Shown piece by piece: positions 2,238 through 61,190 of a stretch of 64,000 nucleotides of DNA. Each line of letters starts with the position of its first letter. The first letter of the stretch is position 1. Under the pieces are notes generated by a model that saw only the letters and a list, made by a program, of their open reading frames with translations, was not told the DNA's origin and made no database searches. A program made the translations under genes and the position numbers. Origin of the DNA: Malacoraja senta (taxonomy: Eukaryota); NCBI GenBank assembly GCA_038087875.1, contig CM075988.1:2666001-2730000 (forward strand). The letters are read 5' to 3'.

Positions 2238-4025
2238 CACGCGGCGTCGAGATCGAGTGTTCGTGAATTGTGCGCAAGTGCTTTAAATCATTTTGTAAAT
2301 TGTAAAAATAGCTTTTCGTATTGTTGTAGGATCCGGATTTTGTAAATATTCTCTGTATGTAAATAAATTAATAGTTAAGATTTAGATCGTGTTAAGTCCA
2401 CAGACCATCAGCTTGTGCGAGTGTTTACAGATTTAAAACTTGAAGCGAGAGTGTATTTAAGTTAGAAATTTGTAGTGTTTAATTTAGATATTCGTATTTG
2501 TTTAAGATTGTTTGGTAAGAATCTGAATCAGGGTGGTTTGATCAGGGGTTGTACTCCTTCGATCGCTGCGTCGGGGAGGAGTCATCCTGCTGATTGATTG
2601 TGCCACGAGGAGGATTGATTAAAGTGTGGTTTACTGTATGATCATAGTTTTTATTAGGGTGTGTTTTGGGTTCTTGATAATTGGGGGAATATTTTCATTC
2701 TTAGTTATAGTCTTGTTGGCGTGGTTTGGGCTTATTTTTTTGTGCCACCTTAAAGTTAATTAAGAGAGAGAGAGAGGCTGCTGTGTGAGAAACTGCTGCA
2801 TGAGAGACCGCGAGTGGGAGTTAGCCCCTTTGTTTGAAAGTTTGGAATTGAATGCAGCAATTGTGATTTAACTGATAAGAGAGTTGGGAGAGACTGAATA
2901 TGAGCGAGTGGTTTGAATAATTAAACAGGAATGATTGGGAGATAGTTGAAAGAAGGTGATTGCTGGAGTGGGTGTGAATCGTAAAGATCGTTACCCATTG
3001 TGTGGGAGAGATTCCATTGACCTTGGAGTCTGAGAGTAGTGAGAGAAAGAGGTGTTAGTGTCTGGAACCTTTATTTTGCAATTTGTGTTTTGTCCATTGT
3101 TCCGAGAAGGATCGATCAAAATGATTGGAAAGCCTGATAAGGATAATTTGTGGGGAGCTTCCAAATGAAGCAGATAGACTGAGGGGATTATCGGGGAAAT
3201 TAAACGCTCCAGCATTTATGTCTACCTTTGAAAGGTCAACTTTGGTCATTGGGGGAATAAAGTCTTTAATCGGGATAAACTATATAGAGACAATCGTTAG
3301 AAATTATGGGAATAGTGAAGAAGCAAATGAGTTAATTCAGATGAGGAAAGCATTCTTCACTAAAAGAAAAATAAAGAAAGAAATTGTTTTACTATCCACC
3401 CTAAGAATGGCGGCTTGTAAATTGAGAATAGGAGAAGATAGAAATGATTCTTCTCAGGACATTTCAGAGTGGGGACAAGGAAAATTAATAAGCCAACAGC
3501 AGGAGCAGGAACAGAAGCAGGAGAGAGTGTTGTCTTTCGAAAAGGAGACTGCTGAAACGGAAATTAAATCGGGTAAATTGGGTAAGAATGAGAAAGGGTT
3601 TGCACCCCTTGAAGGGAATTATATGCCAAACTGGGCAGAGTTCTTCGGAGTAGATATAGAGCCACAGTGTCCCTCACAGAACTCTCACGTTCCCAATTCG
3701 GGGGAACCGTGCGCAGCTTGTGGGCGGGGCACACAGGAGGAGTCAGTGTTGACTTCGGCTCCTCCACCTAAATTTGAATCTGACGTGGAGGCATCGGGAA
3801 GAGATCTTCTATCTCCTGGGATTGCCCAAGGTTGGAGAATAGTGGGGGGGACCCAGGAGCTAGACGGAAGGCTTCATCAACATGGGTGCTGGGGTTGATG
3901 GGGGAATCCAGTAGTGAAAGAATAAAAGAATCCTTCTTGAGGTACTGGGATAAAACATATAGCCTTTCTGGGGGTGAGAGATAAGGGGAGAATATGGATG
4001 GATTGGTCCGGACATAAATAATATT

Positions 4026-4463
4026 ATGGTGTCCGAACAAGTCACCACAGAAGAGAATTTAGTAAGAACTCCCCGTAGACAATGTGTTTGTAGGGAAATG
4101 CCCGCATCAGGTATAAATGTTCCCCAGACCACAGACACTCAGACATCAAGGCAGCCTGGTTCAACGGCAGCACGAAGATTAGAGATCCGAATAAAAGAGA
4201 TAAGAATGAATGAGGATAATGAGGAAGAGGACATAAAGGCCTGGATAGACCTCCCATTTACAGAACCAACCTTTCCCAGGTTTGGCTGGCGAGGTTGTAG
4301 AGCAATACGGCCCGATCAGTGTTTTAGTTGTGGGGGACTTGGGCGCTGGGGTCGGTCGTGTCCCATGAGAGAATATCATCAGGAGGAAGGGGAGGGGGCA
4401 GAGGAGGAGGCCACTGGGTCACTGAAAATGATGGATTCCAAGTGGGCACCGAGGCTCCTGTGA
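4026..4463 (+). pseudogene. Gag nucleocapsid-like ORF remnant with degenerate CCHC knuckle
   Basis: C-x2-C-x4-(H>R)-x4-C spacing in CFSCGGLGRWGRSC. Confidence 0.45.
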
Positions 4464-5034
4464 CCCTGAAGGTAGAGGATGGGGACACTGGCAGGGGGAT
4501 CAGGGGGAAGGGACATACCAACAGTCCAACCCATTTCGGACGATAGCTAAAATAAAACAATTCCTCCAGATTGATGACCTGGAAAAATCATCCACACATT
4601 CATCTCCTCCCGCCTAGATTACTGCAACTCCCTTTACACTGGCATCAGCCAATCTTCCCTGTCCCGCCTGCAACTGGTCCAAAACGCCGCAGCGAGACTC
4701 CTGACGGGCACCCGAAAAAGGGACCACATCACCCCGATCCTGGCCTCTCTCCACTGGCTCCCTGTGCGGTTCCGTATAAACTTCAAGATCAGCCGACTTG
4801 GGGTTGCTGAACCCTCAGATCGGCCGACTTGGGGTTGCTGAATATCCCACGGTCTAGGCATAAGCTCAGGGGCGACCGCGCCTTTGCGGTTGCAGCCCCT
4901 AGACTGTGGAACAGCATCCCCTTTCCCATCAGAACCGCCCCCTCCATCGACTCTTTTAAGTCAAGACTAAAGACTTATCTATACTCCCAAGCCTTTCCTG
5001 ACATCCTCTGAGTGAGGGCTACATGTACTGTATA

Positions 5035-6651
5035 CAGTGGCTTGCAAAAGTATCCATACCCCTTGAACTTTTCCACATTTTGTCACGTTACAACCACAAA
5101 CGTAAATGTATTTTATTGGGATTTTATGTGATAGACCAACACAAAGTGGTGCATAATTGTGAAGTGGAAGGAAAATGATACATGGTTTTCAAATTTTTTT
5201 ACAAATAAAAAACTGAAAAGTGTCGCGTGCAAAAGTATTCAGCCCCCCTGAGTCAATACTTTGTAGAACCACCTTTCGCTGCAATTACAGCTGCAAGTCT
5301 TTTGGGGTATGTCTCTACCAGCTTTGCACATCTAGAGACTGAAATTTTTGCCCATTCTTCTCTGCAAAATAGCTCAAGCTCAGTCAGATTGGATGGAGAG
5401 CGTCTGTGAACAGCAATTTTCAAGTCTTGCCAGAGATTCTCAATTGGATTTAGGTCTGGACTTTGACTGGGCCATTCTAACACATGAATATGCTTTGATC
5501 TAAACCATTCCATTGTAGCTCTGGCTGTATGTTTAGGGTCGTTGTCCTGCTGGAAGGTGAACCTCCGCCCCAGTTTCAAGTCTTTTGCAGACTCTAACAG
5601 GTTTTCTTCCAAGATTGCCCTGTATTTGGCTCCATCCATCTTCCCATCAACTCTGACCAGCTTCCCTGTCCCTGCTGAAGAAAAGCATCCCCATAGCATG
5701 ATGCTGCCACCACCATGTTTCACAGTGGGGATGGTGTGTTCAGGGTGATGTGCAGTGTTAGGTTTCCGCCACACATAGCGTTTTGCATTTAGGCCAAAAA
5801 CTTCAATTTGGGTCTCATCTGACCAGAGCACCTTCCTCCACATGTTTGCTGTGTCCCCCACATGGCTTGTGGCAAATTGCAAATGGGACTTCTTATGGCT
5901 TTTTTTCAACAATGGTTTTCTTCTTGCCACTCTTCCAAAAAGGCCCAATTTGTGGAGTGCACGACTAATAGTTGTCCTGTGGACAGATTCTCCCACCTGA
6001 GCTGTGGATCTCTGCAGCTCCTCCAGAGTTACCATGGGCCTCTTGGCTGCTTCTCTGATCAATGCTCTCCTTGCCCGGCCTGTCAGTTTAGGTGGACGGC
6101 CATGTCTTGGTAGGTTTGCAGTTGTGCCATACTCTTTCCATTTTCGGATGATGGATTGAACAGTGCTCCGTGAGATGTTCAAAGCTTGGGATATTTTTTT
6201 ATAACCTAACCCTGCTTTACACTTCTCCACAACTTTATCCCTGACCTGTCTGGTGTGTTCCTTGGGCTTCATGATGCTGTTTGTTCACTAATGTTCTCTA
6301 ACAAACCTCTGAGGCCTTCACAGAACAGCTGTATTTCTACTGAGATTAGATTACACACAAGTGGACTCTATTTACTAATTAGGCGACTTCTGAAGGCAAT
6401 TGGTTGCACTGGATTTTATTTAGGGGTATCAGAGTAAAGGGGGCTGAATACTTTTGCACGCGACACTTTTCAGTTTTTTATTTGTAAAAAAATTTGAAAA
6501 CCATGTATCATTTTCCTTCCACTTCACAATTATGCGCCACTTTGTGTTGGTCTATCACATAAAATCCCAATAAAATACATTTACGTTTGTGGTTGTAACG
6601 TGACAAAATGTGGAAAAGTTCAAGGGGTATGAATACTTTTGCAAGCCACTG
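5035..6651 (-). mobile_element. Full-length Tc1/mariner (DD34E, IR/DR type, Passport-like) DNA transposon, 1617 bp
   Basis: 213-bp TIRs at 5035-5247 and 6439-6651 starting CAGTGGCTTGCAAAAGTAT; TA at 5033-5034 and 6652-6653; internal direct repeat TGCAAAAGTATYCA at both ends of each TIR. Confidence 0.97.
5253..6272 (-). CDS. Tc1-family transposase, 339 aa, uninterrupted
   Basis: Paired-like HTH N-terminus with GRPPKL; WSDET, QQDNDPKH and SPDLNPIENLW, with 34 residues between the second D and E; C-terminus KGGSTKY. Confidence 0.97.
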   Translation of the reverse strand: MKPKEHTRQVRDKVVEKCKAGLGYKKISQALNISRSTVQSIIRKWKEYGTTANLPRHGRPPKLTGRARRALIREAAKRPMVTLEELQRSTAQVGESVHRTTISRALHKLGLFGRVARRKPLLKKSHKKSHLQFATSHVGDTANMWRKVLWSDETQIEVFGLNAKRYVWRKPNTAHHPEHTIPTVKHGGGSIMLWGCFSSAGTGKLVRVDGKMDGAKYRAILEENLLESAKDLKLGRRFTFQQDNDPKHTARATMEWFRSKHIHVLEWPSQSPDLNPIENLWQDLKIAVHRRSPSNLTELELFCREEWAKISVSRCAKLVETYPKRLAAVIAAKGGSTKY

Positions 6652-7130
6652 TATATGTATGTAGTTTGTTTTGTTGTGCTATTCTTATAACAAATGTAAA
6701 GCACTTTTGCCAACGAGAGTTGTTTTTTAAATGTGCTATATAAATAAATGTGACTTGACTTGACTAGCTCTGACCTGCCAGTTAGCAGCAATACCTTCTG
6801 ATAGAATTAAAAGGCATCCTCACCTGGCCTGAGAAACAGGAGCATCACCCCTTCCAAATAGGAGAATATACATCGAATCTGACTCAGAGAATTCTCACTA
6901 AAGGAGGAAGTATGGCAAGGAAACATAGTAGCTAGCGTGGGAAGAGATAACAACTGAGGAATGGAAATGGCACTAGGGAGAAAAGAAACAAACTTACTGT
7001 GCAGGAGTAATGGGAGTGGGGAAAAGAAGATATTGAACTAATGTATTGCTGCGTTTTGTGCCTGCAGGACAGTGTGTCAACAAGAGAATATCTGGGGAGT
7101 CTCAGTATCTCCACTCCCTAGTGCCAGACA

Positions 7131-7630
7131 CCATCCACAGAGAATTCCACAGACTCACCACTCTCTGTGAGAAAAAGTGTTTCCTCGTCTCCATTCTAAA
7201 TGGCTTAAACTGTGGCCCCTGGTTCTGGACACCCCCAACATCGGGAACATGTTTCCTGCCTCTAATGTGTCCAAGCCCTTAACATTCTTATATGTTTCAA
7301 TGAGATTCCCTCTCATCCTTCTAAACTTCAGAGTGTACAAGCCCAGCCGCTCCATTCTCTCAGCATATGACAGTCCCGCCATCCCGGGAATTAACCTTGT
7401 ATTCCTATGCTGCACTCCCTCAATAGCAAGAATGTCCTTCCTCAAATTAGGGGACCTAAATTGCACACAATACTTCAGGTGTGGTCTCACTAGGGCTCTG
7501 TACAACTCCAGAAGGACCTCTTTGCTCCTATATTCGATTCCTCTTGTTATAAAGGCCAACATGCCATTCGCTTTCTTCACTGCCTGCTGTACCTGCATGC
7601 TTACTTCACTGCCTGCTGTACCTGCATGCT
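7131..7630 (-). mobile_element. CR1 LINE RT C-terminal fragment
   Basis: VKKANGMLAFI..LYRALVRPHLKYCVQF..RLGLYTLKFRRMRG. Confidence 0.9.
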
Positions 7631-9221
7631 GGATTTTAATTGTTTAACCCTTGATGGTAAAGAGGCTTATATTATCAAGGTGGAAAGAAATTGTCCCTGG
7701 ATTTGGCATATTGATTGGACATAGGATGAAATTAATAGTAAAGGAAATTGATTGTTTAAATTTGAACAGCTGGGAATTCCACAGGAATTGGAAGGGAATT
7801 GTATTATCGGCTACAATGCTGTGGAATGAGAAGAGGAAATGGGCATTGAAATTTGAATAGTAAATTGAAGGCTGAGACTATATTTAGTTAAATTGGAACA
7901 TTTATCATGGTTTGCTTCAAATTAAATTCATGCCTGTATGGGGAATCTGGACCGAACCCAGCTGATTACCTGTCACCAGATATACATAGTAACACCATGT
8001 GAGGATGAAGAAGGATATTTAGTGTCGATCCTAGAATAATAAAGAGTATGTTAGGGAATAGATAGGAATAGGGATATAGTGCAGTATAATAGGTTCAATA
8101 GATAATGGAATAGGGATAGGTTCAAGTGAAATAGGAATAGCGAATATGTGGGAAAGCAGGAATGCATGATGGTAACTTGCATTGTCCCAAGTTTCTTAGG
8201 ATTTTCTACTGTGGAAGGTGATGGAAGACTGGGCGGGAACATGGATCGAGGTAAATCGCGCCCACGAAATTCGGGAGGTGAAGAATCCTCAGACAGGACT
8301 TGTGAAGTCATGCCCATGAAAACTCGGGACGCTTTACAAGATTCTGAGAAGAAACATCATCATCTTGTGTTACTGATAGATGGGAAATGTAAAGCACACT
8401 TATGTATATCTGGTTAGCTGATTATTGAGCCACTTTGGTTATCATTAATGATGGGTTATCATTATGATAAAAGGAAGTAATGTTAATCCTGGCTAAATTG
8501 GAGCAGCTAGGACTTCAAAAGGGGGTTAAGTTTCAAGGTTGCTGGGAGATTTGGTCAAATTGGAATTACTCTCAGCACAGCTGGGACAGGCTGCAAAGAG
8601 GTGCCTGGAGCTTAGATACAATCTGCAAGCAAAGAATGGGTAGCCCTGCAAAACCTGTCAATCTGGTGCAAAATGCATAGAATGGATTGGATGGCTGCAA
8701 ACCAGACATACACCTTGTAAATAGTTGTAAATAACGTTGCAGAGTCTGACTTTGATAAGTTTTGATTGGATGAGGTGTTGAGCCTAGTCTGTGTTTTCTG
8801 TTAATCAGGGTAAATGTTTCCAAGTTGACCATCTCGAAGTATTGAACTGTTGTATCATAGGGTTAGGGGAATGCCTGTTATGTATGGGGTTAATCGATAT
8901 CTGTAATTGGGTGATTAAGAAACCACCCCATGTGGTTTGGCCCTTGAGGTCCCGGGACCTATAAAAGTCCGCGACCACGAGGCTCAGCATCGATCTTCTG
9001 GAAGAGCGCTCAGGACCGGGTACCCTTCTGGAGTGCCTCTGTCTGAGCGAGGGCTAGAGGGCTTGAACAGGCAGACGGAAGGATCAAACCCGCGGTGGGA
9101 TAGATACAGTGTGTGATCTGTGACTCGTTTTTGGTAAAATCAATTTTTTTTGATTCAAGTGCTTGATTCAGTGTTTTTACTGAAATTAGACTGGGGGAAG
9201 CATAGAAACGTGCAATTATCA

Positions 9222-9562
9222 CACTCTGCCTGAAATGCTGTGAAATGGAGTTTGTTGGCTTGCACTCTCCCTGAAATGCTGTGAAATTGAGTTTGGTGGC
9301 CTGCACTCTGCCTGAAATGCTGTGAAATTGAGTTTGGTGGCCTGCACTCTGCCTGAAATGCGGTGAAATTGAGTTTGGTGGCCTGCACTCTGGATGAAAT
9401 GCTGTGAAATTGAGTTTGGCGTCCTGCACTCTGCCTGAAATGCTGTGAAATTGAGTTTGGTGGCCTGCACTCTGGCTGAAATGCTGTGAAATTGAGTTTT
9501 TTGGCCTGCACTGCCTGAAATGCTGTGAAATTGAGTTTGGTGGCCTGCATTCTGCTTGAAAT
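9222..9562. repeat. 41-bp minisatellite, about 8 copies
   Basis: Unit CACTCTGCCTGAAATGCTGTGAAATTGAGTTTGGTGGCCTG at 9222, 9263, 9304 and onward. Confidence 0.95.
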
Positions 9563-9581
9563 GGAATTTCAAGGAATAGCC

Positions 9582-9750
9582 ATGAGTGAACTGCCAGCAA
9601 ACGAGCCCTGAGTGACTGATCTGCCAGCCCGCCAGCCCTGAGTGGCTGAGCTGCCAACCCATCAGCCCTGAGTGACTAAGCTGCCAGCCCACCAGCCCTG
9701 GGTGAATGAGCTGCCAGCCCACCAGCCCTGAGTGACTGAGCTGCAGCCCC
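9582..9750. repeat. 30-bp minisatellite, about 5.5 copies
   Basis: Unit approximately GAGTGACTGAGCTGCCAGCCCACCAGCCCT. Confidence 0.9.
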
Positions 9751-10891
9751 CCAAGGTCAGAGTGAGGGCCATGTGCCTGCTTCTGTCACTGCTGGAACAT
9801 AAGTGCCTCTGTGAGGAGGTGTGTGGCTGAGTTGGATCGAGCGGTTGTGTGTAGATCACGTCAGGAGCGCACTGGAAAGGCTGAGTAAATCAGAGCTCGG
9901 TGTGAGCTTGTTTGAGCATGATTGATCATCACACTCAGTCCCCGGGGATCTCCGTCACTTCATCTGTCTGAAAGGAAAATTCTTTGTGCTGAAGATTCCC
10001 AGACTGATATTTGTCCTCTCTGATTGAAGCAAGCGCTGATTCCTGAACAAATCGCTGCTGGAAGCACCGCTGAGGCTGATGTGGAGTAGCCAATAAATCA
10101 CTGCACAAATTACTCCTCTGCCTCCAGAGTTCAGCTCTTTGCAGGAGGATCAACGCATGGTGTCAACCCGAGGCTGCAATTAATGCATTGCTGGGGCTGC
10201 AGCTCACATTGTGGGCTCATTCATCGGAAACGCAAACATCCGCCCCCCCCCCCCCCCTCACACTGGAGCATTAAACCCGTAGCCCCTGACAGCAGTGACG
10301 CTCACGCATCTCCTGCACGTTGGCATTCATTCACGGGCAGCAATATCTAACATGAAATGGCTGATGTGAGGCATGGAGACTTGGAGCAGTCATCTCCCCC
10401 ACTGTATTTCCCCAGTGAGGAGCAGAACTGAGCATAATAACTCAGTCAGGACACACACACACACAGCCGATCACTAATCACAGTGATGTAAGTGAAATGG
10501 AAGGAGCGTGATAAATGTGTTTGCATTTGAAGCAAACATTGTACTGTATCTGAGATGCTGATCTGACATGTTTGTATAGTGACTTATACTTGCTTATGTA
10601 TAATGACACTTGTACTGAACTGACCTCGGTACATGTGACAAATAAAGTGCCATACATTGGTATGTGAGGGGGTTGAATGTGAGGGGGAGACGATCTCAGC
10701 AGTTGGGCAATAACAGTTCCACTGGGGATGTGCAGGGTGATGGTCGTGGAGAGGTACAAGAAGGTAGGGGCGCAGACAGTGAACCACGATGTCTAGACTC
10801 TTGCTGGCAGCAGTGGTTGGAGCTGGTGGGTGGGAATTTTGAATAAAGGAAAGCAAGTTAATGTGAGGTTAGAACCAATGTGTACTTGTGT

Positions 10892-11099: not shown

Positions 11100-11548
11100 T
11101 AATGTGTACTTACGTTTACCATAGAGAGGATGAGCAGAGGAGAATGTAATGGAGGCTAAAGAGACCAGCCTAGACACTGCTGTCTGATTCTAAGGTCATT
11201 GATGCGTGAAGGCCCCAGCGGCGTTAGGTTGAAAATAGACACAAAAAGCTGGAGTAACTCAGTGGGACAGGCAGCATCCCTGGATAGAAGGAATGTGTGA
11301 CGTGACCCTTCTTCAGACGTTAGGTTGGAACTTGACTCTCAGCAACGCTCTGCCCTTTCCCTATGTCCCATGATCACTTTTGTATTACTCCACCTACAGT
11401 GGTGGGTTCGGGACTCCAATGTCCCATGAATGGGCTGATCACTTTGAATATTAAATAACAAATATAAATGATTGTCTTGGCTGGAACAGGTTAAGACATC
11501 AAGTTGAACATGTCAAGTTAAACCTGAAAGTCAATGAGTGATTAATTC

Positions 11549-11816
11549 AGTTTAAAGATACAGTGTGAAAACAGGCCCTTCAGCCCATTGAGTCCGCGCC
11601 GACCCACGATCAGCGTACACTAGTTCTATTATGCAACTAAATGCAATTTGCAGAAACCTTTCGGGTGTAGGAGGAAATCGGAGCACCTAGAGAAAACCTA
11701 TGCGGCCGCAGGCAGAACGTACAAAACTCCGTACAGACAGCGCCCGAAGTCAGGATCGAACCCGGGTCTCTGGCACTGTAAGGCAGCAACTCAACTGCTG
11801 CGCCACCGTGCTGCCC
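11549..11816 (-). mobile_element. tRNA-derived V-SINE (HE1-like)
   Basis: A box TGGCGCAGCAG, B box GGTTCGATCC, V-type core, CR1-like tail GGGCCTGTTT..CTGTATCT. Confidence 0.85.
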
Positions 11817-14975: not shown

Positions 14976-16510
14976 GGGGGCGCCGCACGATGGCAGCCTC
15001 GCCAACAGTCTATCTGTTTTTTCTACATTTTTGTTTGTTATTTTTAGTGTGTTTTAAAAGTTTGTGTTAATGTTCTCTGGTTTGTTTTATGTGGGGGATG
15101 GGGGAGGGCGTCTGGGGAAACTTTTTTTCAATCTCTTACCTTGCAGGATTGTTTTCCGGATCGTATCTCCGGTTGCTCTGCGGCCTAACATCATGGAGCT
15201 GTGCGCCTTGCTCGGGACTGACTTTGAGCCATTGGAGCCTGAGATCCCTTGCCTGGGATCGAAGCTAAACCGTGGCCTGCGAATTTCACCATTGAGGAGC
15301 TCGGGTAGAGACCGATGTCGGGAAGCTCCAAACGAAGCAGAAGATTCGACCAGCTCCGACTCGGGGTCCGATCGCTTGGCGCGGGGAGTTGACATCCCCC
15401 TGATGCAAGAGCATCCCCCTGATTGCCCTGACGTGGAGGGTCCGACCACTATATGGGAGCCAAGATTGTCCCGTCAACGGAAGGCTGGAGGCTCCCGATC
15501 ACGGGAGAACAAAGAAGGGAAGAGATTGAACTTTTTTTTCGCCTTCCATCACAGTGAGGAATGCGGAGGAGTCACTGTTGTGGATGTTTATGTCAAAATG
15601 TATTTTGTGTGTTCTGTTGCTTTTTATTAGTATGACTGGAAGTGGCGGCGCTGTTGCACAGCTGCGGCTCGCCTGCAGTTTTCTTTTTGTCCTGTTTTAG
15701 TTACATTTTAGTTTATTGGGTTGTGTATGTGTTGGGGGGGGGGGGTGAAACATGTTTTTTGTCTCTTCCTTCAGGGGAATGCGACTTTTTCTTGTCGTAT
15801 CCCCCTTCTCTGCCTCCGTCTGCGCTGAGGCCAAAATGGCGGAGCTGCCGGCCTCCAACTCCAACTGCGACCGACCGACCTCGAGGCTCCGGAGGCAGAT
15901 CCAGGACTTACCAGCGCGGGGCTGGCCGGCTTTGGGGCTGCGGTGGCGTTCCGGCGGTGGCAACCGAGGATGCTGGTGGCGACCTGAGTCCGGAGGCTCG
16001 GCCGCGGGCCCGGTGGACGACATCGTCGGGAGCTCGCAGGTCACAGGTGGGTGACCTGTTTTTCTGGGGCTCCCGCAATTACAGCTGCGTCCGCTGGACT
16101 GGAGGGCGGCAGCTTCGGCAGCTTCGGCCACCCCGGGCCGCGGAGTTTGAACCGGCCCGTGGCGGACGGAGCACGGGACTGACTTACCATCACCCGGCGG
16201 GGTCACAACATCAGAAGTCTGGATCGCCTCAGCGCAGAGGGAGAACAAAGAGGGAAGAGACAGAGACTTTAAGACTTTTGCCTCCATCACAGTGAAGAGG
16301 TGCCTGGTGAACTCACTGTGGTGGATGTTAATTTGTGTTCATTGTGTGTTTTGTTATTTATTATATGTATGACTGCAGGCAACGAAATTTCGTTCAGACC
16401 GAAAGGTCTGAATGACAATAAAGGAATCTAAGTCTGTATGGCAAATCAAATTCCTCGTATGTTGAAAAACATACTTGGCTAATAAACTATGATTATTATC
16501 ATGATTTTGA
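14976..16510 (+). mobile_element. CpG-rich non-autonomous retroposon with Rex1/Babar-type tail, interrupted near its 3' end by a related element
   Basis: Shares the CCTTCCATCACAGTGAGG..TCACTGTTGTGGATG hairpin module; tail resumes at about 16433 and ends AATAAAC plus a short repeat. Confidence 0.65.
15638..16430 (+). mobile_element. About 800-bp CpG-rich non-autonomous retroposon (copy 1)
   Basis: Highly similar to 55337-56194; starts GGAAGTGGCGG; ends TTCAGACC-GAAA-GGTCTGAA stem-loop plus TGACAATAAA. Confidence 0.85.
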
Positions 16511-16769
16511 TTGACGTGATCCTGGACCGTGACCTCGGCTGCCCTCCCCACAGATGCTGTCTCACCAACATGCCTTGTTACTATTTCCCACCTCCACCGT
16601 CAGCAGTATTTTGCTTTTGCAAGTCATTGAGGAGGCAGTAGTGGCTTCACCAACTGTTAGCTGTCATATTTTCCATGTGGGGTGGGACATGGCGTCCCTA
16701 CGTCAACAGGCTGGAGTTATCAGTGCAGTCCTGTGTGTGGATTGATGTTAGGTGTGTGGACAGGTGTTT

Positions 16770-17068
16770 GGTTTAGTTTGAAGATACAGCACTGAAACAG
16801 GCCCTTTGGCCCACCGAGTCCGCGCCAATGAACCATCACCCGTGCACTAGTTCTACCCTACACACACAAGGGACAATTTACAGAAGCCAATTAACCTACA
16901 AACTGACACATCTTTGGAGTGTGGGAGGAAACCGGAGCACCTGGAAAAAAACCACGTGGGTCACAGGGAGAATGTACAATCTCCGTACAGACAGCACCCA
17001 TGGTCAGTCTTGAACATGGGTCTCACCATGTGCTGGTGTAAGGCAGCAACTCTACCGCTGCACCACCT
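16770..17068 (-). mobile_element. V-SINE (HE1-like)
   Basis: Same head, core and tail as the other copies. Confidence 0.85.
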
Positions 17069-17619
17069 GTGGGGGGAGGGAGGTTTAATGGGAATGTGGG
17101 GAGAATAAAAAGGGATTACAGTAGCACTGTTGCAAATGGCAAATGGGTGGTCTATGGTGGGTCGCAGGGACTGTTTCTGCACTGTGTAATTGACTATAAA
17201 GGGCTGCGAGCTCTGACTGCAGAAGAGACAGCGACATCCAACAACAGCCTGGTTACTGTGCTGATGATCTGTGCTTCAGAGCTAATCTGCTTCGAGCCAA
17301 GGTGAGCAGAACAGCTGCATGACTGGCAACTTACCAACCGTGGATGATTGCCCAGTCTGGGCCTAGTTGGGACTAATTCCATCCAAATCGATTACTGCCT
17401 CATCAATCTACTCCCAGTCCTCAGCCAGGGTTTGGATGGCGTTTGCAGAGTTATCAAGATCCACAGACTCGCCAACAACCTGCTCATCAGAGCTCATTTG
17501 TGTTGTACCAAGGACTCTCTAGCCCAGGACTCATTCTGGCCTCGGTACAAATCTAGACAAAGGATTGAATTCTAGTGCCAACACGAGAGTGCTGTTATTA
17601 AGGCATATTTAGTGTGATA

Positions 17620-17938
17620 TTTAGTTTAGTTTAGTTTATTTTATTTTAGAGATACAATGCAGAAACAGGCCCTTTGCCCCACCGAGTCTGCACCGACCAG
17701 CGATCCCCGCACATTAACACTATCCTACACACACTAGGGACAATTTACAATTACACCAAGCCAATTAACCTACAAACTTGCGCGTCTTTGCAGTGTGGGT
17801 GGAAACCGAGGATCTTGGAGAAAACCCACGCAGGTCACAAGGAGAACGTACAAACCCCGTACAGACGGTACCCATGGTCAGGATCGAACCCGGGTCTCTG
17901 GCGCTGTGAGGCAAAAACTCTACTGCTGCACCACCATG
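17620..17938 (-). mobile_element. V-SINE (HE1-like)
   Basis: B box GGTTCGATCC, (CTAAA)n tail. Confidence 0.88.
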
Positions 17939-18283
17939 TCACTCGTATCAAGGAGCTTGCTGGTAAACTGGATAATGCCTTTTACAAAGGGATTGTTTAT
18001 GGTTGTTGGAGATTCATCGGCTTATCCTCAGGATATCACTGAAGGAGATCCAGCAGAGACGATGGCCTCCTATGACATAGCCATTTTATGGAGATTTTGT
18101 GCCTGCCCGGGGATGTCCAAGATCATTAATAACTTGGATGTGAGGCAGGAGTCATGATCTTCATGAAGATCACTAAAGAGGCAGAGTTTTAAAGAAGGAA
18201 CTGCAGATGCTGGAAAATCGAAGGTACACAAAAATGCTGGAGAAACTCAGCGGGTGCAGCAGCATCTATGGAGCGAAGGAAAT

Positions 18284-18431: not shown

Positions 18432-21209
18432 CTAGCAGAATTGGGAGAATTCAACGTTCAGGCCACCAGGATGTAGACTGCCCAAGCGGAATATGAGGTG
18501 CATTTCCTCCAATTTACGGTGTTGCTCGCTGTGGCCATGGAGGAGACCCAGGACAGAGAGGTCAGATACGGAATGGGAGGGGGAGTTGAAGTGCTGAGCC
18601 ACCGGGAGTTCAGGTTGGTTATTGCGGACCGACCGGAGGTGTTCGGCGAAACGATCGCCAAGCCTCCGCTTGGTCTCACCGATGTAGATCAGCTGGCATC
18701 TAGAGCAGCAAATGCAATAGATGAGGTTGGAGGAGATGCAGGTGAACCTCTGTCGCACCTGGAACGACTGCTTGGGTCCTTGAATGGAGTGGAGGGGGGA
18801 AGTGAAGGGACAAGTGTTGCATCTCTTGCGGTTGCAAGGGAAAGTACCAGGGGAGGGGGTGGTATGGGAGGGAAGGGAAGAATTGACAAGGGAGTTACGG
18901 AGGGAGCGGTCTTTGCGGAAGGCAGACATAGGGGGAGATGGGAAGATGTGGCGAGTGGTGGGGTCACGTTGGAGGTGGCGAAACTGACGGAGGATCACTT
19001 GTTGTATGTGACGGCTGGTGGGGTGAAAGGTGAGGACTAGGGGGACTCTGCCTTTGTTGTGAGTGGGGGGATGGGGAGAGAGAGCAGTGTTGCGGGGTAT
19101 GGCAGAGACCCTGGTGCGAGCCTCATCTATGGTGGAGGAGGGGAACCCCCGTTCCCTGAAGAATGAGGACATTTCAGATGCCCTGGTGTGGAACGCCTCA
19201 TCCTGGGAGCAGATGCGGCGTAGACGGAGGAATTGGGAGTGGGGGATGGAGTCCTTACAGGAAGCAGGGTGGGAAGAAGTGTAGTCCAGATAGCCATGGG
19301 AGTCGGTAGGTTTGTAGTGGATGTCGGTAAGGAGTCTATCACCTGCGATGGAGATAGTGAGGTCAAGGAATGGTAGGGAAGTGTCGGAAATGGTCCAGGT
19401 GTATTTGAGTGCCGGATGGAAGTTGGTGGTGAAGCGGATGAAGTCAGTCAGTTGTGTGTGGGTGCAGGATGTGGCACCAAAACAATCATCGATGTAGCGG
19501 AGGTAGAGGTCGGGGATGGGGCCCTGGTACGCATTGAACAAGGATTGTTCTACGTACCCGACAAAGAGGCAGGCGTAGCTGGGGCCCATGCGTGTGCCCA
19601 TAGCTACGCCTTGTATTTGGAGGAAATGGGAGGAGTCAAATGAAAAGTTATTAAGTGTAAGTACCAGCTCCGCTAGGCGGAGGAGGGTGTCAGTGGCCGG
19701 GTATAGATTGCTTCTACGGTCGAGGAAAAAACGGAGGGCTTTGAGACCATCCTGGTGGGGGATGGAGGTGTACAGTGACTGGACGTCCATGGTGAAGATG
19801 AGGGGGTGATGGCCTAGAGAGTGGAATGCGCGGAGATGACGGAGAGTGTCTGAGGTGTCTTGAACATAGGTGGGGAGGGATTTAACCAAGGGGGATAGTA
19901 TGGCGTCGAGGTAGGTGGAGATGAGTTCGGTGGGGCAAGAACAGGCAGAGACAATGGGTCTACCGGGACAGTCAGGTTTGTGGATTTTGGGGAGAAGGTA
20001 AAAGCGGGCTGTGCGGGGCTGGGGAACGATGAGGTTGGAGGCTCGTTCGGGCAGGGCGTGGGAGTGGATGAAGTTGGTGATGGTGCTGGAGATGGTGGCC
20101 TGGTGCTCGTCAGTGGGGTCATGGTCCAGGGGTAAGTAGGAAGAGGTGTCCGAGAGTTGGCGCGTGGCCTCAGCTTTGTAGAGGTCGACGCGCCAGACTA
20201 CCACGGCACCTCCCTTGTCGGCGGGTTTGATAACCCAATCTAGGTTGTTGCGGAGTGAGTCGATGGCAGTGCGTTCAAGGGGGGAGAGATTGGAGTGAGA
20301 CAGGGGAGTGGAGAAGTTGAGGCGGTTGATGTCACGGCGGCAGTTTTTAATAAAGAGTTCTAAAGCCGGAAGGCTACGAGGGGGGTTCCATGAGGATGGG
20401 GTGCGTTGGAGACGGGAAAAGGGGTCATCAGTGGGGAGCGAGGACTCCTTCCCATGGAAGTGAGCTGTGAGGCGGAGGCGACGGTAGAAGCGTTCCAAGT
20501 CATGGAGGGCACGGAACTCATTGAGATGGGGACGGAGGGGGACAAAGGTATGACCTCTGCTGAGGACAGACCGTTCGATGTCGGAGAGGGGGAGGTCGGG
20601 GGGGATGGTGAACACCCGGCAGGGATGGGGGTTGGGGCCGGAGGAAGGCAGGTGGGTGGAATGGGGACGGGGTGATGTGTGGTGGGGGGGTGGTGGGTGG
20701 TCAGGGGGTGGGGGGGTGAGAGGGCAGTGGTGTGGGTGTGGAAGAGAAGTGGTCCCATAGTTGGAGAGGGATGGGGAAGAATCAGTGGAACTGCCACTGA
20801 GATAACCAGGGCTAGGCAGACTAGCGCTAGGACCCAGTGGAGTCAAACCCAGGAGAGTGGGAGTGAGCAGCGTGGAGGCTTCAGGCCCAGTACAGAGTCC
20901 AGTTTGCAGGTAAGGCGACGGCTGCGGGCTGCTGGAGGGAGGTGCAGTGGCGAGGGTCAGCGGACCCGACGGTCGGGGTCCGTGGGCAGTGTAGTCGGGG
21001 TCGGTGGGGCTGGAGGGCGTTGCAGTGGCGAGGGTCGGCGGACCCGATGGTCGGGGTCCGTGGGCAGTAGAGTCGGGGTCCACGGGCGATGCGTGGGAGG
21101 TCCCGGTAGGCGGATGGTCGGTGGGGCGGCGCGGTTCGACCAGCCCGGTGAGGCGACGGGGTGAATAGGGTGCGGTGCGGCGGCCAAGTTCGTGGAGCCC
21201 CGGTCCCAT
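18432..21209 (-). CDS. Penelope-type reverse transcriptase plus GIY-YIG endonuclease, 925-codon open frame (start codon uncertain)
   Basis: IKPADKGGAVV, FYLLPKIHK..PGRPIVS, TMDVQSLYTSIP, QGVAMGTRMGPSYA, YLRYIDD, PFLDL, CNRKRCNTC linker, NLIYCI..IYIGETKRRL..RFAEH. Confidence 0.92.
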   Translation of the reverse strand: MGPGLHELGRRTAPYSPRRLTGLVEPRRPTDHPPTGTSHASPVDPDSTAHGPRPSGPPTLATATPSSPTDPDYTAHGPRPSGPLTLATAPPSSSPQPSPYLQTGLCTGPEASTLLTPTLLGLTPLGPSASLPSPGYLSGSSTDSSPSLSNYGTTSLPHPHHCPLTPPPPDHPPPPHHTSPRPHSTHLPSSGPNPHPCRVFTIPPDLPLSDIERSVLSRGHTFVPLRPHLNEFRALHDLERFYRRLRLTAHFHGKESSLPTDDPFSRLQRTPSSWNPPRSLPALELFIKNCRRDINRLNFSTPLSHSNLSPLERTAIDSLRNNLDWVIKPADKGGAVVVWRVDLYKAEATRQLSDTSSYLPLDHDPTDEHQATISSTITNFIHSHALPERASNLIVPQPRTARFYLLPKIHKPDCPGRPIVSACSCPTELISTYLDAILSPLVKSLPTYVQDTSDTLRHLRAFHSLGHHPLIFTMDVQSLYTSIPHQDGLKALRFFLDRRSNLYPATDTLLRLAELVLTLNNFSFDSSHFLQIQGVAMGTRMGPSYACLFVGYVEQSLFNAYQGPIPDLYLRYIDDCFGATSCTHTQLTDFIRFTTNFHPALKYTWTISDTSLPFLDLTISIAGDRLLTDIHYKPTDSHGYLDYTSSHPASCKDSIPHSQFLRLRRICSQDEAFHTRASEMSSFFRERGFPSSTIDEARTRVSAIPRNTALSPHPPTHNKGRVPLVLTFHPTSRHIQQVILRQFRHLQRDPTTRHIFPSPPMSAFRKDRSLRNSLVNSSLPSHTTPSPGTFPCNRKRCNTCPFTSPLHSIQGPKQSFQVRQRFTCISSNLIYCICCSRCQLIYIGETKRRLGDRFAEHLRSVRNNQPELPVAQHFNSPSHSVSDLSVLGLLHGHSEQHRKLEEMHLIFRLGSLHPGGLNVEFSQFC

Positions 21210-21554
21210 GTGGTGACTGGCTGAGAGTGACTCATCATGTGGGAGATGTACAGGCCCTCTATGCTATTGATTATTATTGCCATGTGTGCTGCCAAACATG
21301 AGTACAACCAGCCATACTCAAGTACAGCATGTAGTGCAGAGAGAAAAATGCCAGAGGGCAGAATATAGTGTTGCCGCTACAGAGAAACTGCAGGTAAAAA
21401 AGTGCAAGGGCTGCAGTGAGATAGGTTGGGAGATTGGAGTTATACTCATGACTAACAAAAGGTCCATTGAAGAATCTGATAACAAATGTAAGGAGCCATT
21501 CCTGTATCTGGTGGTACGTGCTTTCAAGGTTTTGTATCATCAGCCTGACGGGAG

Positions 21555-25489: not shown

Positions 25490-27092
25490 GAATAGTAAGA
25501 TTAAACAAGAACTTACCAGTTTGAAGTTTGATCTTTATTTTATGAGGAGTTACGATGAGCGATTACGTGAAGAACCCCATCAGTCGGCATGCGCGTCAAT
25601 CTTCAAAGCAGCGGTGTGAAATCACAGATAAAACGTAACTGAAGTAACATAGTAAGACTATAAAACAGACCTTCCAGTTGACCTTTATAATATTGAGGGC
25701 CGGGAGCGGTGGGCATGTAATCGCTCATCGTAACTCCTCATAAAATAAAGATCAAACTTCAAACTGGTAAGTTCTATTTTAATCTTACTATTTTACTTCG
25801 GAGTCACGTGAGTGATTCCGTGAAGAATTCAAAGCTCTGAGATTTCATGCCGTAGATACGAATCACACTGCATCAGTTGACTCAGGAGGAGTGAATAATG
25901 AGCAATACAATGAAACATGGTACAGATTAACATGTTGCTTTAATTCACAAACTAATAAAGAAAAATACAATAGCGACCCCTCTGTCCCAGGGGAAGCTAG
26001 GAAACATAACTTAAAATAGAATGGGCGAACACCCCGGTTTTGATAAGTGGTTTATTATAATACCGGTGAAAAGTCAGTTCATTTGACCATCCTGTGGCTG
26101 CGAGGATATGGTCTAGAGGGACGTCCATTGCCCTTGCTGCTGACGTTGATGCCGCCCTGGTGGAGTGAGATTTAAAATTGTCAGTATTAACTCCTGCAAA
26201 ACCAAATACTTGTTTCAGCCATCTTGAGATGGTCTGGACGGACACTTTCCCATGTGGCATTTTGTGGCTAACAAACAATTGTACTTCCGATCCTCTGAGG
26301 TGCTTGGCGACCTCAATATAAGACCGCAAGTGTGCCACCACACACAGTCGTAAATCTGTGGGATATGGTGACAGTAGAAGCTTGACTCCTGACACCCCTG
26401 GTCTGCTCTGTTTTATGAGATCATATATGTAGAACAGAACGTCATTCCCAGACGACACCATCCTGTCCAGTCGCAACTTCTGCAGAGTCTGAACCCTTTG
26501 CGCTGACACCAGCGCCATGAGCATGACCAACTTCAAGGTAATCTTTACCAAAGACAAGGAATTGGCTGGACCCCACTGACGAAGCAGCGTGAGTACCACA
26601 CTCACATCCTAGATTTCTGTATATCTAGGCCTGGGGGGATTGGAATTAAAAACACCCTTCATAAATCGAGATATTAACGGAAGAGATCCTACAGACTGTA
26701 GTTCTGACCCCAAACATAAATACGACGACAGAGCACTCCTGGCAGTTTTGATGGCACTATAACTTAAACCCTCATCAAAATACAATTTGGAGAGAAACTG
26801 TGACACATCTGGGATGGAAGCTGTGTGGTAAGTAATGTTCCCTTTTAAGCAAAACGCCTCCCACTTCCTGACATGAGAGAGGTACTGCTTTTTTGTACTA
26901 TCCCTCCAGGATGATGTGATGATATCCACGGTGCCATTGGATAATCCCAGACCCAGGTATGGCCTCCTTAAACCCTGCAAATTAACAAATTAATACGATC
27001 ATACAACGTGTGTTGATCTCCAGTCACAGGGTTTACCAATAGGTTATGACATTTTGGAACCACCATAATTGGCTGAGTTATAATGTCCGAAA
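25490..27092 (-). mobile_element. DIRS1-like retrotransposon, 3' part (end of pol, tyrosine recombinase, ICR, right ITR)
   Basis: YR frame; about 80-bp inverted repeat between 25490-25568 and 25716-25792; the ICR continues into a sequence matching the left end at 1518-1554. Confidence 0.92.
25997..26980 (-). pseudogene. Tyrosine recombinase with a single in-frame stop (TAG at 26609-26611)
   Basis: PRYTEI*DVSVVL; SAQR, SHSTR, TGWS and FHRYY catalytic R-H-R-W-Y motifs are present. Confidence 0.9.
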
Positions 27093-30029: not shown

Positions 30030-31750
30030 TGAAAAGATGAAGTACGAAGGGAAGCTGGCCAGGAATATAAAGAAGGACAGTAAAAGCTTCTTTAGATATG
30101 CTAAGGGAATAAGAGTAGCAAAGTCAAATGTGGGTCCCTTGAAGGCAGACACGGGTGAAATTATTATGGGGAACAAGGAAATGGCAGAAGAGTTGAACAG
30201 GTACTTCGGATCTGTCTTCACTAAGGAAGACACAAACAAACTCCCAGAAGTACTGGAGGACAGAGGATCTAAGGGGGTCGAGGAACTGAAAGAAATTTTC
30301 ATTTGGTGAGAAATAGTATTGGGTAGGTTGATAAATCCCCAGGGCCTGGTGGACTGCATCCCAGGGTCCCCAGGGAGGTGGCTCTAGAAATAGTGGACGC
30401 ATTGGTGATCATTTTCCAATGTTCAATAGATTCAGGATCAGTTCTTGTGGATTGGAGAATAGCTAATGTTATCCCACTTTTCAAGAAAGGAGACGAGAGA
30501 GAAAACAGGGAATTACAGACCAGTTAGCCTGAATTCGGTGGTGGGAAAGATGCTGGAGTCAATTATTAAAGAGGTAATAATGGGGCATTTGGATAGCAGT
30601 AAAAGGATTAGTCCAAGTCAGCATGGATTTATGAAAGGAAAATCATGCTTGACTAATCTTCTGGAATTTTTTGAGGATGTGACAAGTAAAATGGATGAAG
30701 GGGAGCCAGTGGATGTAGTGAATCTAGACTTTCAGAAAGCCTTTGATAAGGTCCCGCACGGGAGACTGGTGACTAAAATTAGAGCACATGGTATTGGGGG
30801 TAGGGTGTTGACGTGGATAGAAAATTGGTTGGCAGACAGGAAGCAAAGAGTAGGAGTGAACGGGTCCTTTTCAGAATGGCAGGCAGTGGCGAGTGGAGTG
30901 CCGCAAGGCTGGATGTTGGGGCCGCAACTGTTTACCATATATATTAATGATTTGGAAGAGGGAATTAGGAGCAACACTAGTAAGCTTGCGGATGACACAA
31001 AGCTGGCTGGCAGTGTGAACTGTGAAGAGGATGTTAGGAGGTTGCAGGGTGACCTGGACAGGTTGAGTGAATGGGCAGTTGCGTGGCAGATGCAGTATAA
31101 TATAGATAAATGTGAGGTTATCCACTTTGGTAGCAAAAACAAGGGGGCAGATTATTATCTCAATGGGGTTAGGTTAGGTAAGGGGGAGGTACAGCGAGCC
31201 CTGGGTGACCTTGTTGGCATGCAGGTACAGCAGGCAGAGAAGAAAGCTAATGGAATGTTGGCCTTCATAACAAGAGGATTTCTGTATAGGAGTAGAGAAG
31301 TTCTTCTGCAGTTGTATAGGGTTCTGGTGAGACCACATCTGGAATATTGCGTACTGTTTTGGTCTCCTAATTTGAGGAAGGACATCCATGTGATTGAGGC
31401 ATTGCAGCGTAGGTTCACGAGATTGATCCCTGGGATGGCGGGACTGTCATATGAGGAAAGATTGAAAAGACTAGGCTTGTATTCACTGGAGTTTAGAAGG
31501 ATGAGGGGGGGTCGTAGAGACACATATAAAATTATAAAAGGACTGGACAAGCTAGATGCAGGAAAAATCACTGGATGGATTTAAGGGAGAGTTAGAGCTC
31601 TAGGGGCCAGTGGAATCAAGGGATATGGGGAGAAGGCAGGCACGTGTTATTGATTGGGGACGATCAGCCATGATCGCAATGAATGGCAGTTCTGGCTCGA
31701 AGGGCCGAATGGCCTCCTCCGGCACCTATTTTCTATGTTTCTATGTTTCC
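30030..31750 (+). mobile_element. CR1 LINE, 5'-truncated, RT domain largely open (30466-31584)
   Basis: NYRPVSL, QHGFMKGKSCLTNL, DFQKAFDKVPH, GVPQG, LADDTK; (TTTCTATG)n tail. Confidence 0.95.
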
Positions 31751-35270: not shown

Positions 35271-35504
35271 CTTTATTTCTGTGTTTTTCCTGTTTCCTCC
35301 CAGGAATCGATCAAATTCCCTTTAAATATCCCTGACAGACTACATCTCCCACTGGGATCATCACAGTTCCCGAGCACAATGACAACAAAGCCCATTAAAA
35401 TGTCTTTCCTCACACTGCTTGTACCTTTTGCCCATCACTTTGAATTCATTGACCTGTCCATCTCTTCCTGTTCTCTGTGATTTAAAGTTAATTCACAGTT
35501 TAAT

Positions 35505-35815
35505 TTGGTTTAGTTTAGAGATCCAGCACGGAAACAAGCTCTTTGGCCCACCGAGTCCGCACCGATCAGCGATCACCCCGTACACTCGCACTATCCTACA
35601 CACGCTAGGGACAATATCGAATCTTTACTAAAGCCAATTAACCTACAAAGCTGTATGTCTTTGGAGTGCGGTAGGGAACCGGAGCACCCGGAGAAAACCT
35701 ATGCAGGTCACAGGGAGAACTAATACAAACTCCGTACAGACAGCACCCCGTAGTCAGGATTTAACCCGAGTTTCTGCCGCTGTAAGGCAGCAATTCTACC
35801 GCTGCGCCGCCGTGT
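35505..35815 (-). mobile_element. V-SINE (HE1-like)
   Basis: Full head, core and tail. Confidence 0.87.
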
Positions 35816-36922
35816 CGTGCCACTCACTTTGCATCTTTCTCCACGGATGCTGCCTGTTCCGCTGATTTACTCCAGCATTAGCTGCCTGCGAAGTATTACC
35901 AGCATTTGTTGTTTTTGTTTCAGGTTTCCATTTTATTGATTTTCAATATCTCTCTGCACTCTCTCAAGTTTCAAGTTTCAAGTTTATTTTATTCGTCACA
36001 CACACATACGAGATGTGCAGTGAAATGAAAAGTGGCAATGCTCGCGAATTGTGCAAAAAACAGACAAACAAACTACAAACAGAATGGAACGGAAACACAT
36101 ATTCACATATTACATATTTGTGGGAGGGAGGGAAGAAAAAGGAAAAAAAACAGCAATTTAAAAAAAGACACCACACAACAGTAAATTGGTTCAGTAAAGT
36201 TGGTCCCTGGAGAGATAGGAGATAGAGATCAGACGTCCCTATGTCTCCTGAAGCAACTGTCCAACACTGGAACCAGGCCTCATTACGCAAGCCTCATGAT
36301 CAGCGGCTCAGTGACCAACTCAATCCTACTGATGCTTTGAACGTGAGACACAAACCGTCTCCCTCATGGGATTAGATGATTGCGGTGAACTGGGCGTTCC
36401 CTTCCTATTCGGCTGGGTCCTGTGCGCATCACCCTGACTCCACTATAGCCCCCTGCCCAGATTCCAGGCTCAGTAGCGCCAGGTTATTCACCAGGGCTAC
36501 CCACAGAGTTCCCTTCCTCCAGCCAGCATCAACCAGCCAACGGTCCATCAGAGCACATGGCACCCTGAGATGGACTTGTGCCTCCAGAGATGGGCTCGCA
36601 AATATTTTATGCAGGTGTGAAAATAACTCTGTGCCTTTGTACTCTTCTTGCTTATGCCTCTCTATGAATCCCAGGATCCCACATGTAACAACTCTCAATG
36701 TTTCCCAATAATGCTGAAGATTTCTATGCATCCATGTCCAGCTCCCCCTGCTCAAGCACATCCTTTGAAACCCACCATTGCAGCCTACAGCCCTTTCTTC
36801 TGACATAAAGGAATTTCCTCTTTCCCTGTCACGGGCCCACTGGTCCAGCCACCTACATCGTCTTGCTGCTTATCACTGCATCCCCACTCTTTATTCACCT
36901 CCACGTCTAGTGTGTCTGGGAA

Positions 36923-46557: not shown

Positions 46558-46647
46558 CATTAAATGACTAAAAACTCCAGTTAGTGGTTGTCAATGCTTA
46601 AAGCTGCATACTTCTTCTGCAGGGCCTGACAGAAAGTTCTGATTTAA

Positions 46648-46912
46648 TTTAGTTTAGTTTAGGGATACAATGTGGAAACAGGCCCTTCGAACCACCGAGT
46701 CCGCACCGATCGACGACCACCGTGTACTTACACTATCCTATACACACGAGGGACAATTTAAAATGTGGGAGGAAACCTGAGTACACAGGGAAAACCCACG
46801 CAGGTCACAGGGAGAGCGTATAAACTCCGTACAGGCAGCACCCGTAGTCAGGATCGAACTTGGGTCTCTGGCGCTGTAAGGCAGCAACTCTACCGCTGCG
46901 TCACCATGCCGC
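46648..46912 (-). mobile_element. V-SINE (HE1-like)
   Basis: B box GTTCGATCC, (CTAAA)n tail. Confidence 0.85.
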
Positions 46913-47142
46913 CCCAAGTGGCCGTTCATGGCCGCCACATGGGGAAGCTGTGACCCTGCACCACACCTGTCACGAACGATTCTCCAGCCCTGCATCCTGA
47001 CCTATTCCAGTCGTCTCATTCACTCGAGCCCAGGAAATGAAACTGGAGATTGCCAGACCTTTAGCCTCTATCCCCGAGACAACAGCAATGCCCAATACCC
47101 CAAAACATTGAACATTGAACACCCATCCCCACTGCCTCCCAG

Positions 47143-56540: not shown

Positions 56541-56679
56541 ATGCATCCAGTCCAATAAAGCTGCAAAATGACTTCCTTACACTTATATTCGAAGCCTCAT
56601 AACAATTTTGCCATACATTAGTACATTTTCAAATGCATGCAGATATTTAAAATCTTCATAAAATACTGCATGTAAAATA

Positions 56680-57010
56680 GGGCTGCACAGTGGTGCAGCG
56701 GTAGAGTTGCTGCCTTACAGCGTCAGAGACCCAGGTTCGATCCTGACTATTGGTGATGTCTGTACGGAGTTTGTATGTTCTTCTCGTCACCTGTGTTTGT
56801 TTTCTCCGGGTGCTCTGGTTTCCTCCCACACTCCAAAAGATGCATAGGTTTGTAGGTTGATTGGCTTTGGTAAAATTGTAAATTGTCCCTATTGTGTGTA
56901 GGATGGTGTTAGCATATGGAGATCGCTGGATGGCGCAGACTCGCTGGGCCGAAGGGTCTATTTGCATGTTTTATCTTTAAACTAAACAAAACTAAAGTTT
57001 AAACTAAACT
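56680..57010 (+). mobile_element. V-SINE (HE1-like)
   Basis: A box TGGTGCAGCGG, B box GGTTCGATCC, (CTAAA)n tail. Confidence 0.88.
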
Positions 57011-61187: not shown

Positions 61188-61190
61188 GAG

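Follow-up and report, generated by a model that had tools for sequence, protein, structure and literature searches.

Passport (PPTN), from plaice, and ZB are Tc1 transposons that were found to be natively active (PMC2651795, PMC7913693). Active ZB copies have terminal inverted repeats (TIRs) that are 100% identical and are more than 99% identical to one another (PMC7913693). Passport-like elements of Xenopus and trout were named Eagle and Glan, and the hosts given for these in the available text include no cartilaginous fish (PMC2651795). A ZB-like DD34E Tc1 was reported from one chondrichthyan species, with at least 100 full copies, 10-99 of which are intact (PMC9777934). Tc1/mariner is the most commonly transferred type of element in vertebrates, and Tc1 elements have frequently been transferred between ray-finned fishes (~94% of 975 vertebrate events), with no cartilaginous fishes named in the text searched (PMC7070016). 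TcMar elements amount to 3.28% in skates, where three rounds were described, 2.30% in rays, and 0.14% in sharks; the word "horizontal" does not occur in the available text of that study (PMC12361510). Another paper covers transfers of the CR1 group, which have no bearing on the Tc1 described here (PMC13343379). Tc1 transfers among fishes, natively active vertebrate Tc1s, and the TcMar expansions of skates and rays are, therefore, already published. In the literature searched, which left most subscription journals outside its scope, no Passport-like family was described in elasmobranchs or as shared by them with bony vertebrates. The part of this work that is modestly new is the likely transfer between elasmobranchs and bony vertebrates.

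The window, meaning the whole 64-kb stretch of DNA that was analyzed, contains a Tc1 element at 5035-6651. Taken as a whole, the evidence makes it likely that this is a complete, probably inactive copy of a Passport-like IR/DR Tc1 family that is likely high-copy, likely entered elasmobranchs horizontally, and would have multiplied through cut-and-paste transposition at TA sites. By inspection, the element is 1617 bp long, starts with CAGTG, and ends with CACTG. It lies on the minus strand, with the 3' TIR at 5035-5247 and the 5' TIR at 6439-6651. The TIRs are 213 bp each and 99.06% identical, with exactly two mismatches, at 5054/6632 and 5150/6536. Each TIR contains two direct repeats (DRs), one outer and one inner, that are spaced 185 bp apart and 75-86% alike (outer ~5037-5064 and inner ~5222-5251 in the 3' TIR; inner ~6437-6464 and outer ~6622-6649 in the 5' TIR), which is the structure of the IR/DR group, with TIRs of ~200-250 bp. 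An AATAAA is found within the 3' TIR on the minus strand (5112-5117). A minus-strand spacer of 166 bp (6273-6438) runs from the 5' TIR to the ATG and likely holds the promoter and the 5' UTR. TA is present directly outside both ends, at 5033-5034 on the 3' side and 6652-6653 on the 5' side, and the computed chance of TA at both ends is ~0.002. Sleeping Beauty (SB) prefers AT-rich targets, and the TATA/TATA context of the element agrees with that preference. The initial annotation had described a complete element with 213-bp TIRs differing at about two positions, IR/DR architecture, a TA duplication, and an open 339-aa DD34E frame, all of which was reproduced.

A search for sequencing runs sharing words with the element listed 24 runs from 14 studies with 10 organism labels (4 runs were unlabelled), which hold 60-82% of the element's exact 31-mers. 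Contigs of four of the 24 runs were aligned to positions 3400-8200 at 85% likeness and scored in 30 bins; the other 20 runs enter the analysis through their share of words alone. In run X21, seven contigs join 5027 to 6652, giving L2 copies without the Tc1, and one contig joins 4505 to 6767, giving the outer repeat without the L2. Since the X21 contigs join across the Tc1 and across the whole L2, the Tc1 is the youngest layer of a nest: it sits in the 3' UTR of an L2 that itself sits in an older low-copy repeat. The L2 is a 3' piece of a LINE on the plus strand (4506-6766), delimited by its translation at 4578-4841 and by the contig joints; it had no Pfam match, and we take it to be L2-type from its translation. 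The empty-site contigs of X21 were also considered as proof of insertion polymorphism, and this was rejected because the flank is a repeat and other copies of it may supply such contigs. No second copy of the element was found in the 64-kb window with blastn and tblastn.

The transposase is encoded by a stop-free minus-strand ORF at 5253-6272. Pfam matches above the cut-offs were obtained for HTH_SB, HTH_Tnp_Tc3_2, and DDE_3. As in other DD34E/Tc1 proteins, a single ORF of about 340 aa encodes two N-terminal HTH domains, in a paired-like HTH region, and a GRPR-like linker, here GRPPK at residue 58. The catalytic triad is D152, D243, and E278, with 34 residues separating the last two. Residues 112-339 aligned without gaps to the catalytic domain of SB100X (PDB 5cr4; E=1.5e-88) and, therefore, the fold of the transposase is already fixed. 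The exact window protein was absent from the protein collection searched.

The nearest full-length proteins, P0128, P0129, P0130, and P0134, are 97.1-97.6% identical in amino acids to the window transposase. The best copies of the catfishes Pangasianodon and Pangasius come next (90-94%), followed by transposases of tilapia, Xenopus, tonguefish, and piranha (88-90%). The plaice Passport records CAB51372.1 (P0183), CAC28060.1, and CAB51371.1 (P0190) are 85.3-85.8% identical. A quick maximum-likelihood tree, built from a choice of 40 rows, groups the window protein with P0128, P0129, P0130, and P0134 (support 97), and this cluster adjoins the pangasiid copies. It is nested among elements of Xenopus, tilapia, and salmonids (SH-aLRT 94), with Passport just outside, and the window protein and Passport both lie within one clade of 30 of the 40 rows (support 97). 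Because of these identities and this tree position, the element is Passport-like, grouping with Passport at 85.8% identity (above 80%), and is not Passport itself, for which 98-99% identity to plaice PPTN would be expected. The initial annotation was, thus, right about the Passport-like IR/DR DD34E type and overstated the case in calling the protein very close to Passport, given 97.6% to the nearest copy and 90-94% to the best pangasiid copies. No named chondrichthyan transposase was present among the homologue matches listed or among the 120 shorter relatives listed, and the evidence for the family in elasmobranchs comes from the window and from the sequencing runs.

The comparison with described families is consistent with this placement. 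Passport shares the 339-aa DD34E transposase, the IR/DR ends, and the TA target, and 19 of the element's first 21 bases match the Passport ITR primer (PMC2651795). DNA identity among flatfish Passport copies is 98-99% (PMC2651795), whereas the window element is 85.5-85.8% identical to Passport in amino acids, and Passport branches outside the subgroup that holds the window element. The Eagle/Glan subfamily was described from Xenopus tropicalis, salmonids, and others; the element groups with transposases of Xenopus, tilapia, piranha, tonguefish, and Oncorhynchus (82-90%) but in its own cluster near the pangasiid copies. With the names Eagle and Glan assigned here by host species, the element is probably on the Eagle/Glan side of the Passport-like group. 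SB100X has the same IR/DR architecture but belongs to a separate subfamily and was reconstructed and engineered. The chondrichthyan ZB-like Tc1 is likewise young, about 1.6 kb long, and targeted to TA, but at 1612 bp, with 340 aa and TIRs of 201-203 bp, it differs from the window element (1617 bp, 339 aa, 213 bp) and, compared by description, is a different family (PMC9777934). The Group 1 Tc1 of lampreys and teleosts also shows 95-99% identity over a deep vertebrate split and was interpreted as horizontally transferred; it is of the DTSsa1 type and was PCR-negative in the cartilaginous fishes tested (PMC3516227).

The window transposase differs from P0128, which was used as a stand-in for the progenitor, at eight residues: 18, 109, 112, 130, 155, 171, 233, and 304. 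All eight are a single base from the family residue. Two of them, TTG for Ser109 and CAT for Arg130, are of the CpG-decay type, as is the TIR change at 5150. Residue frequencies were taken from a redundant set of 203 homologues, each 250-400 aa long. In this set, the window residues Cys18 (2/190), Leu109 (3/202), Phe112 (5/201), and Arg304 (3/188) are rare, and decayed homologues often have His130 (41). Pro171, found in seven of eight pangasiid rows, may be ancestral rather than private to the window copy, so that the private amino-acid changes number seven or eight. The family base at position 5575 (residue 233) accounts for 99.9-100% of the depth in runs X21, X1, and X17, compared to only about half of the depth in run X20. 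The terminal branch of the window protein is 0.024 from the node supported at 97, compared to branch lengths of 0 for P0128 and P0129.

One of these changes is at codon 155 (5808-5810, minus strand), which reads CAA for Gln. Of 200 ungapped homologues, 198 have Lys at this site and none has Gln; within this family, Gln155 is a lesion of the window copy on the evidence of the aligned relatives, which have Lys. The initial annotation had pointed to DETQIEVF in place of DETKIELF, the form found in SB, as a possible impairment; the motif was read correctly and the worry was upheld. Residue 155 lies three past the first catalytic Asp, at the position of Mos1 W159, where Tc1-like proteins carry a conserved Lys (PMC5481204). 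The W159A change nearly abolishes excision and strand transfer by Mos1, and neighboring Trp residues may fill the role of W159 in Tc1s (PMC5481204). Since a nearby Trp may take over this role, the harm done by K155Q is a prediction and some activity could persist. No published test of a K-to-Q change at this site, or of the equivalent lysine of SB, was found in the literature. On present comparisons, K155Q is predicted to impair catalysis.

A second predicted weakness is in the outer DR of the 3' TIR, where position 5054 is a derived change and the AAGTATTC core reads AAGTATCC. This position belongs to the core common to all four direct repeats. The change is unique among six aligned TIR ends, the other five of which have T at the matching base, and it is predicted to weaken transposase binding at one end.

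The age of the copy was estimated from its divergence. A divergence of ~0.5-1% gives 1.5-3.3 Myr at 3.1e-9 per year, which is the mean rate of vertebrates (PMC7070016). The epaulette shark has a very low mutation rate, 7e-10 per base per generation (PMC10587355), and at this rate the age would be 7-15 million generations. The copy is, therefore, at least ~1.5 Myr old and, at shark rates, could be tens of Myr old. The word "recent" in the initial annotation is to be taken with care.

Several readings of the window copy itself were weighed. That it is autonomous and currently mobile, like native Passport or ZB, is improbable, although the ORF is open, the DD34E triad is intact, the TIRs are 99% identical, a TA duplication is present, and Passport and ZB show that native activity occurs (PMC2651795, PMC7913693). 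Passport has been shown to be active, whereas the window copy carries K155Q, judged here by sequence, together with six or seven further private changes and the derived base in the outer DR core. It has two TIR mismatches and stands ~1% from its family, in contrast to the identical TIRs and >99% mutual identity of active ZB copies (PMC7913693). The best of the listed runs holds only 82% of the element's words. The open ORF is also less telling than it appears, since at 1% divergence the chance of an ORF staying open is 0.22-0.43 (assumed indel ratios 0.15-0.05) and 22-43% of such copies would be expected to keep one. An open ORF could instead mean that the gene was domesticated by the host and kept by selection. 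This is very improbable: both TIRs and the target-site duplication are retained, the element sits in a repeat nest in which no host gene was found among 121 frames scanned, the changes hit conserved residues, and divergence at amino-acid-changing sites (1.0%, 8/787) is not below the 0.47% per TIR arm (2/426; P=0.19). Thus, "possibly still mobile" was not supported for the window copy, which is probably dead, to judge from its sequence. Most likely it is a relic, although its mobilization in trans by other copies might be feasible if the altered end can still be used. The full-length proteins P0130 and P0134 retain Lys155 and each differ from P0129 by one residue; given these near-identical proteins, a related host may have younger copies. 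That the family as a whole is active at present is nevertheless doubtful.

The four aligned runs differ in what they share with the window. Runs X21, X1, and X17 (organisms J, A, and F) have depth in 30 of 30 bins and, therefore, carry the host CR1, the L2, and the outer repeat. Their summed Tc1 depth relative to the outer flank is ~670 (X21), ~7300 (X1), and ~1300 (X17), which is not a copy number but suggests that the Tc1 family is high-copy. Run X20 (organism I, 1,973 million letters) has depth in only 12 of 30 bins, 11 over the Tc1 and one with a trace of 0.83. It has no depth over CR1, where X21, X1, and X17 have 0.9-16 million. The 107,076 contigs aligned from X20 include 23,280 with a likeness of 99% or more and 46,357 with one of 95-99% (65% at 95% or more), and the run holds 60% of the element's exact 31-mers. 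Differences from the element were seen at 54 places in 1617 bp, which is no strict bound because the list is incomplete, and which includes related subfamilies. Contamination of X20 with host DNA was rejected, since CR1 would then come at several times the Tc1 depth.

In X20, L2 sequence with 85% or more likeness to that of the host amounts to a trace at most. Since the organism of X20 shares the Tc1 closely, lacks this CR1, and has no more than that trace of L2, the Tc1 is far more conserved than the surrounding repeats. Of 320 aligned columns, 10 distinguish the pangasiid majority sequence from P0128 (~97% identical). An organism with the Tc1 at ~97-98% and its other repeats more than 15% away presents the pattern of horizontal transfer. 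Transfer had been proposed in the initial annotation, and both the X20 pattern and the closeness of the pangasiid majority to P0128 speak for it. We consider it likely that the Tc1 family was shared horizontally with a non-elasmobranch lineage.

Two other explanations would do without transfer. The family could have descended vertically from the ancestor of cartilaginous and bony fishes and look young because sharks and rays evolve slowly. The low epaulette shark rate (PMC10587355) fits this, and the Passport paper took the distribution of Eagle and Glan as vertical (PMC2651795). However, the close Tc1 of X20 comes without CR1 depth and with L2 in trace amount at most, and the family protein is ~97% identical to the catfish majority, compared to 53-55% for CR1 proteins of bony vertebrates. 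The neighbors in the tree (catfish, piranha, tonguefish, tilapia, Xenopus, and bichir) are out of the order of host phylogeny, and TcMar content is 0.14% in sharks and 0.03% in chimaera against the 3.28% of skates (PMC12361510). Vertical descent is, on balance, quite improbable. It is harder still to credit that teleost DNA was misassembled into, or contaminated, a cartilaginous-fish assembly. The close named relatives among the matches listed are all bony vertebrates, one of them a lizard, as contamination would predict; against it, the junctions are clean, the TA duplication lies within a host-type L2, and three runs with three organism labels combine the host repeats with deep Tc1 coverage. 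A hint in the same direction, and no more than a hint, comes from ENA records that include both Tc1 copies close to the consensus and CR1 pieces sharing ~94% identity with those of the window. Horizontal transfer is, therefore, the preferred reading. A more specific version, in which a teleost-type Passport/Eagle Tc1 recently entered batoids or other elasmobranchs, drove part of the TcMar expansion, and is still mobile through the near-consensus copies P0128, P0129, P0130, and P0134, is unlikely.

Carriers and wider relatives were also looked for. Among viral contigs, 15 pattern matches gave 0 confirmed cases, and no viral carrier was seen. In metagenome contigs, 244 matches gave 42 loci, none of the window Tc1 family and none with the host CR1 or L2; the best long DNA matches were 84-91%. 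A neighboring Eagle-like subfamily (90% clusters of P0004, P0008, P0142, and P0404) occurs in the lizard Phrynocephalus forsythii as well as in Xenopus tropicalis, tilapias, bichir, and mrigal carp. This distribution suggests that additional transfers took place in a group that the Passport paper regarded as vertically inherited. One fish-type Tc1 transposase, P0056 (67% to the query), is labelled "IS630 family transposase [Escherichia coli]" in NCBI and is probably host contamination of a bacterial record.

The established biology of IR/DR Tc1 elements, as worked out for Sleeping Beauty, is the basis of the mechanism proposed for this element. The transposase would bind, through its HTH domains, all four direct repeats, an outer and an inner one in each 213-bp TIR, and would pair the ends. 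The D152-D243-E278 center would then cut, and the element would insert at a TA, which would be duplicated. The family's history would have been entry by transfer, a burst of copies, and then neutral decay. The progenitor of the window copy presumably inserted into the 3' UTR of an L2 that was already inside the older repeat, after which the copy may have drifted neutrally by ~0.5-1%, its ORF still open by chance.

A transferred family would supply one cause for the TcMar expansions of skates and rays. If the family were still mobile, it would be a natively active DNA transposon of cartilaginous fishes and a ready transgenesis tool for skates. The gain in tools would be small, since Passport, ZB, and SB exist, and the window copy would be the wrong one to test. 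Shared and unshared insertions could be used as dated markers in a lineage with a slow clock. More generally, the current activity of an element of sharks or rays cannot be read from an open ORF and 99% identical TIRs.

Almost all of the window consists of repeats. Pfam searches of 121 further frames revealed no host gene, only an endonuclease, a tyrosine-recombinase piece, and a faint DnaJ-X match, and Rfam gave 0 matches in the window. The CR1 of the window best matches named elasmobranch proteins (Leucoraja 83.5%, Hypanus 82.8%, and Chiloscyllium 79% in amino acids), followed by chimaera (68%) and turtle, frog, and teleost proteins (53-55%), in agreement with the cartilaginous-fish host that had been proposed. 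By these matches the host is very likely an elasmobranch, with the skate (Leucoraja) and the ray (Hypanus) matched too evenly to choose between them. Two CR1 copies, at 30125-31564 and 36931-38403, are 77% alike, and an open RT frame of 373 aa in the former shares 92% identity with the ENA protein P0197. The surrounding elements had been described as mostly decayed; not all of them are, since a 943-aa RT frame on the minus strand is open at 18435-21263. This frame has a weak RVT_1 match and a C-terminal GIY-YIG-like stretch; it looks like a Penelope-like retroelement, and with its frame intact it is possibly also young. Two adjoining minus-strand frames at 26000-26989 match Phage_integrase and Phage_int_SAM_4 and are presumably the tyrosine recombinase of a DIRS/Ngaro-type retroelement.

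The outer repeat (~2240-4505 and 6767-9200) is decayed and low in copy number; it is inserted in a CR1 and in turn contains the L2 and the Tc1. It is present in X21, X1, and X17 and absent from X20, and one X21 contig joins 3824 to 8062. Long frames are found at 3125-4463, with no Pfam match in the frames scanned. By resemblance, we assume a zinc-knuckle-like motif there (3125-4463) and a short env-like stretch at ~8600-8700; paired LTRs of this repeat were looked for and none were found. A dispersed SINE-like repeat of ~300 bp, with no Rfam match, has at least 10 copies that are 65-82% alike, at 11538-11816, 16764-17071, 17620-17941, 35488-35817, 46634-46914, 56674-57008, 60022-60350, 61182-61511, and others. 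A pair of ~800-bp sequences without a Pfam match, at 15638-16429 and 55337-56162, is 90.6% alike and represents a younger repeat. Tandem arrays with units of 41 bp (8.4 copies) and 30 bp (5.7 copies) are located at 9222-9753.
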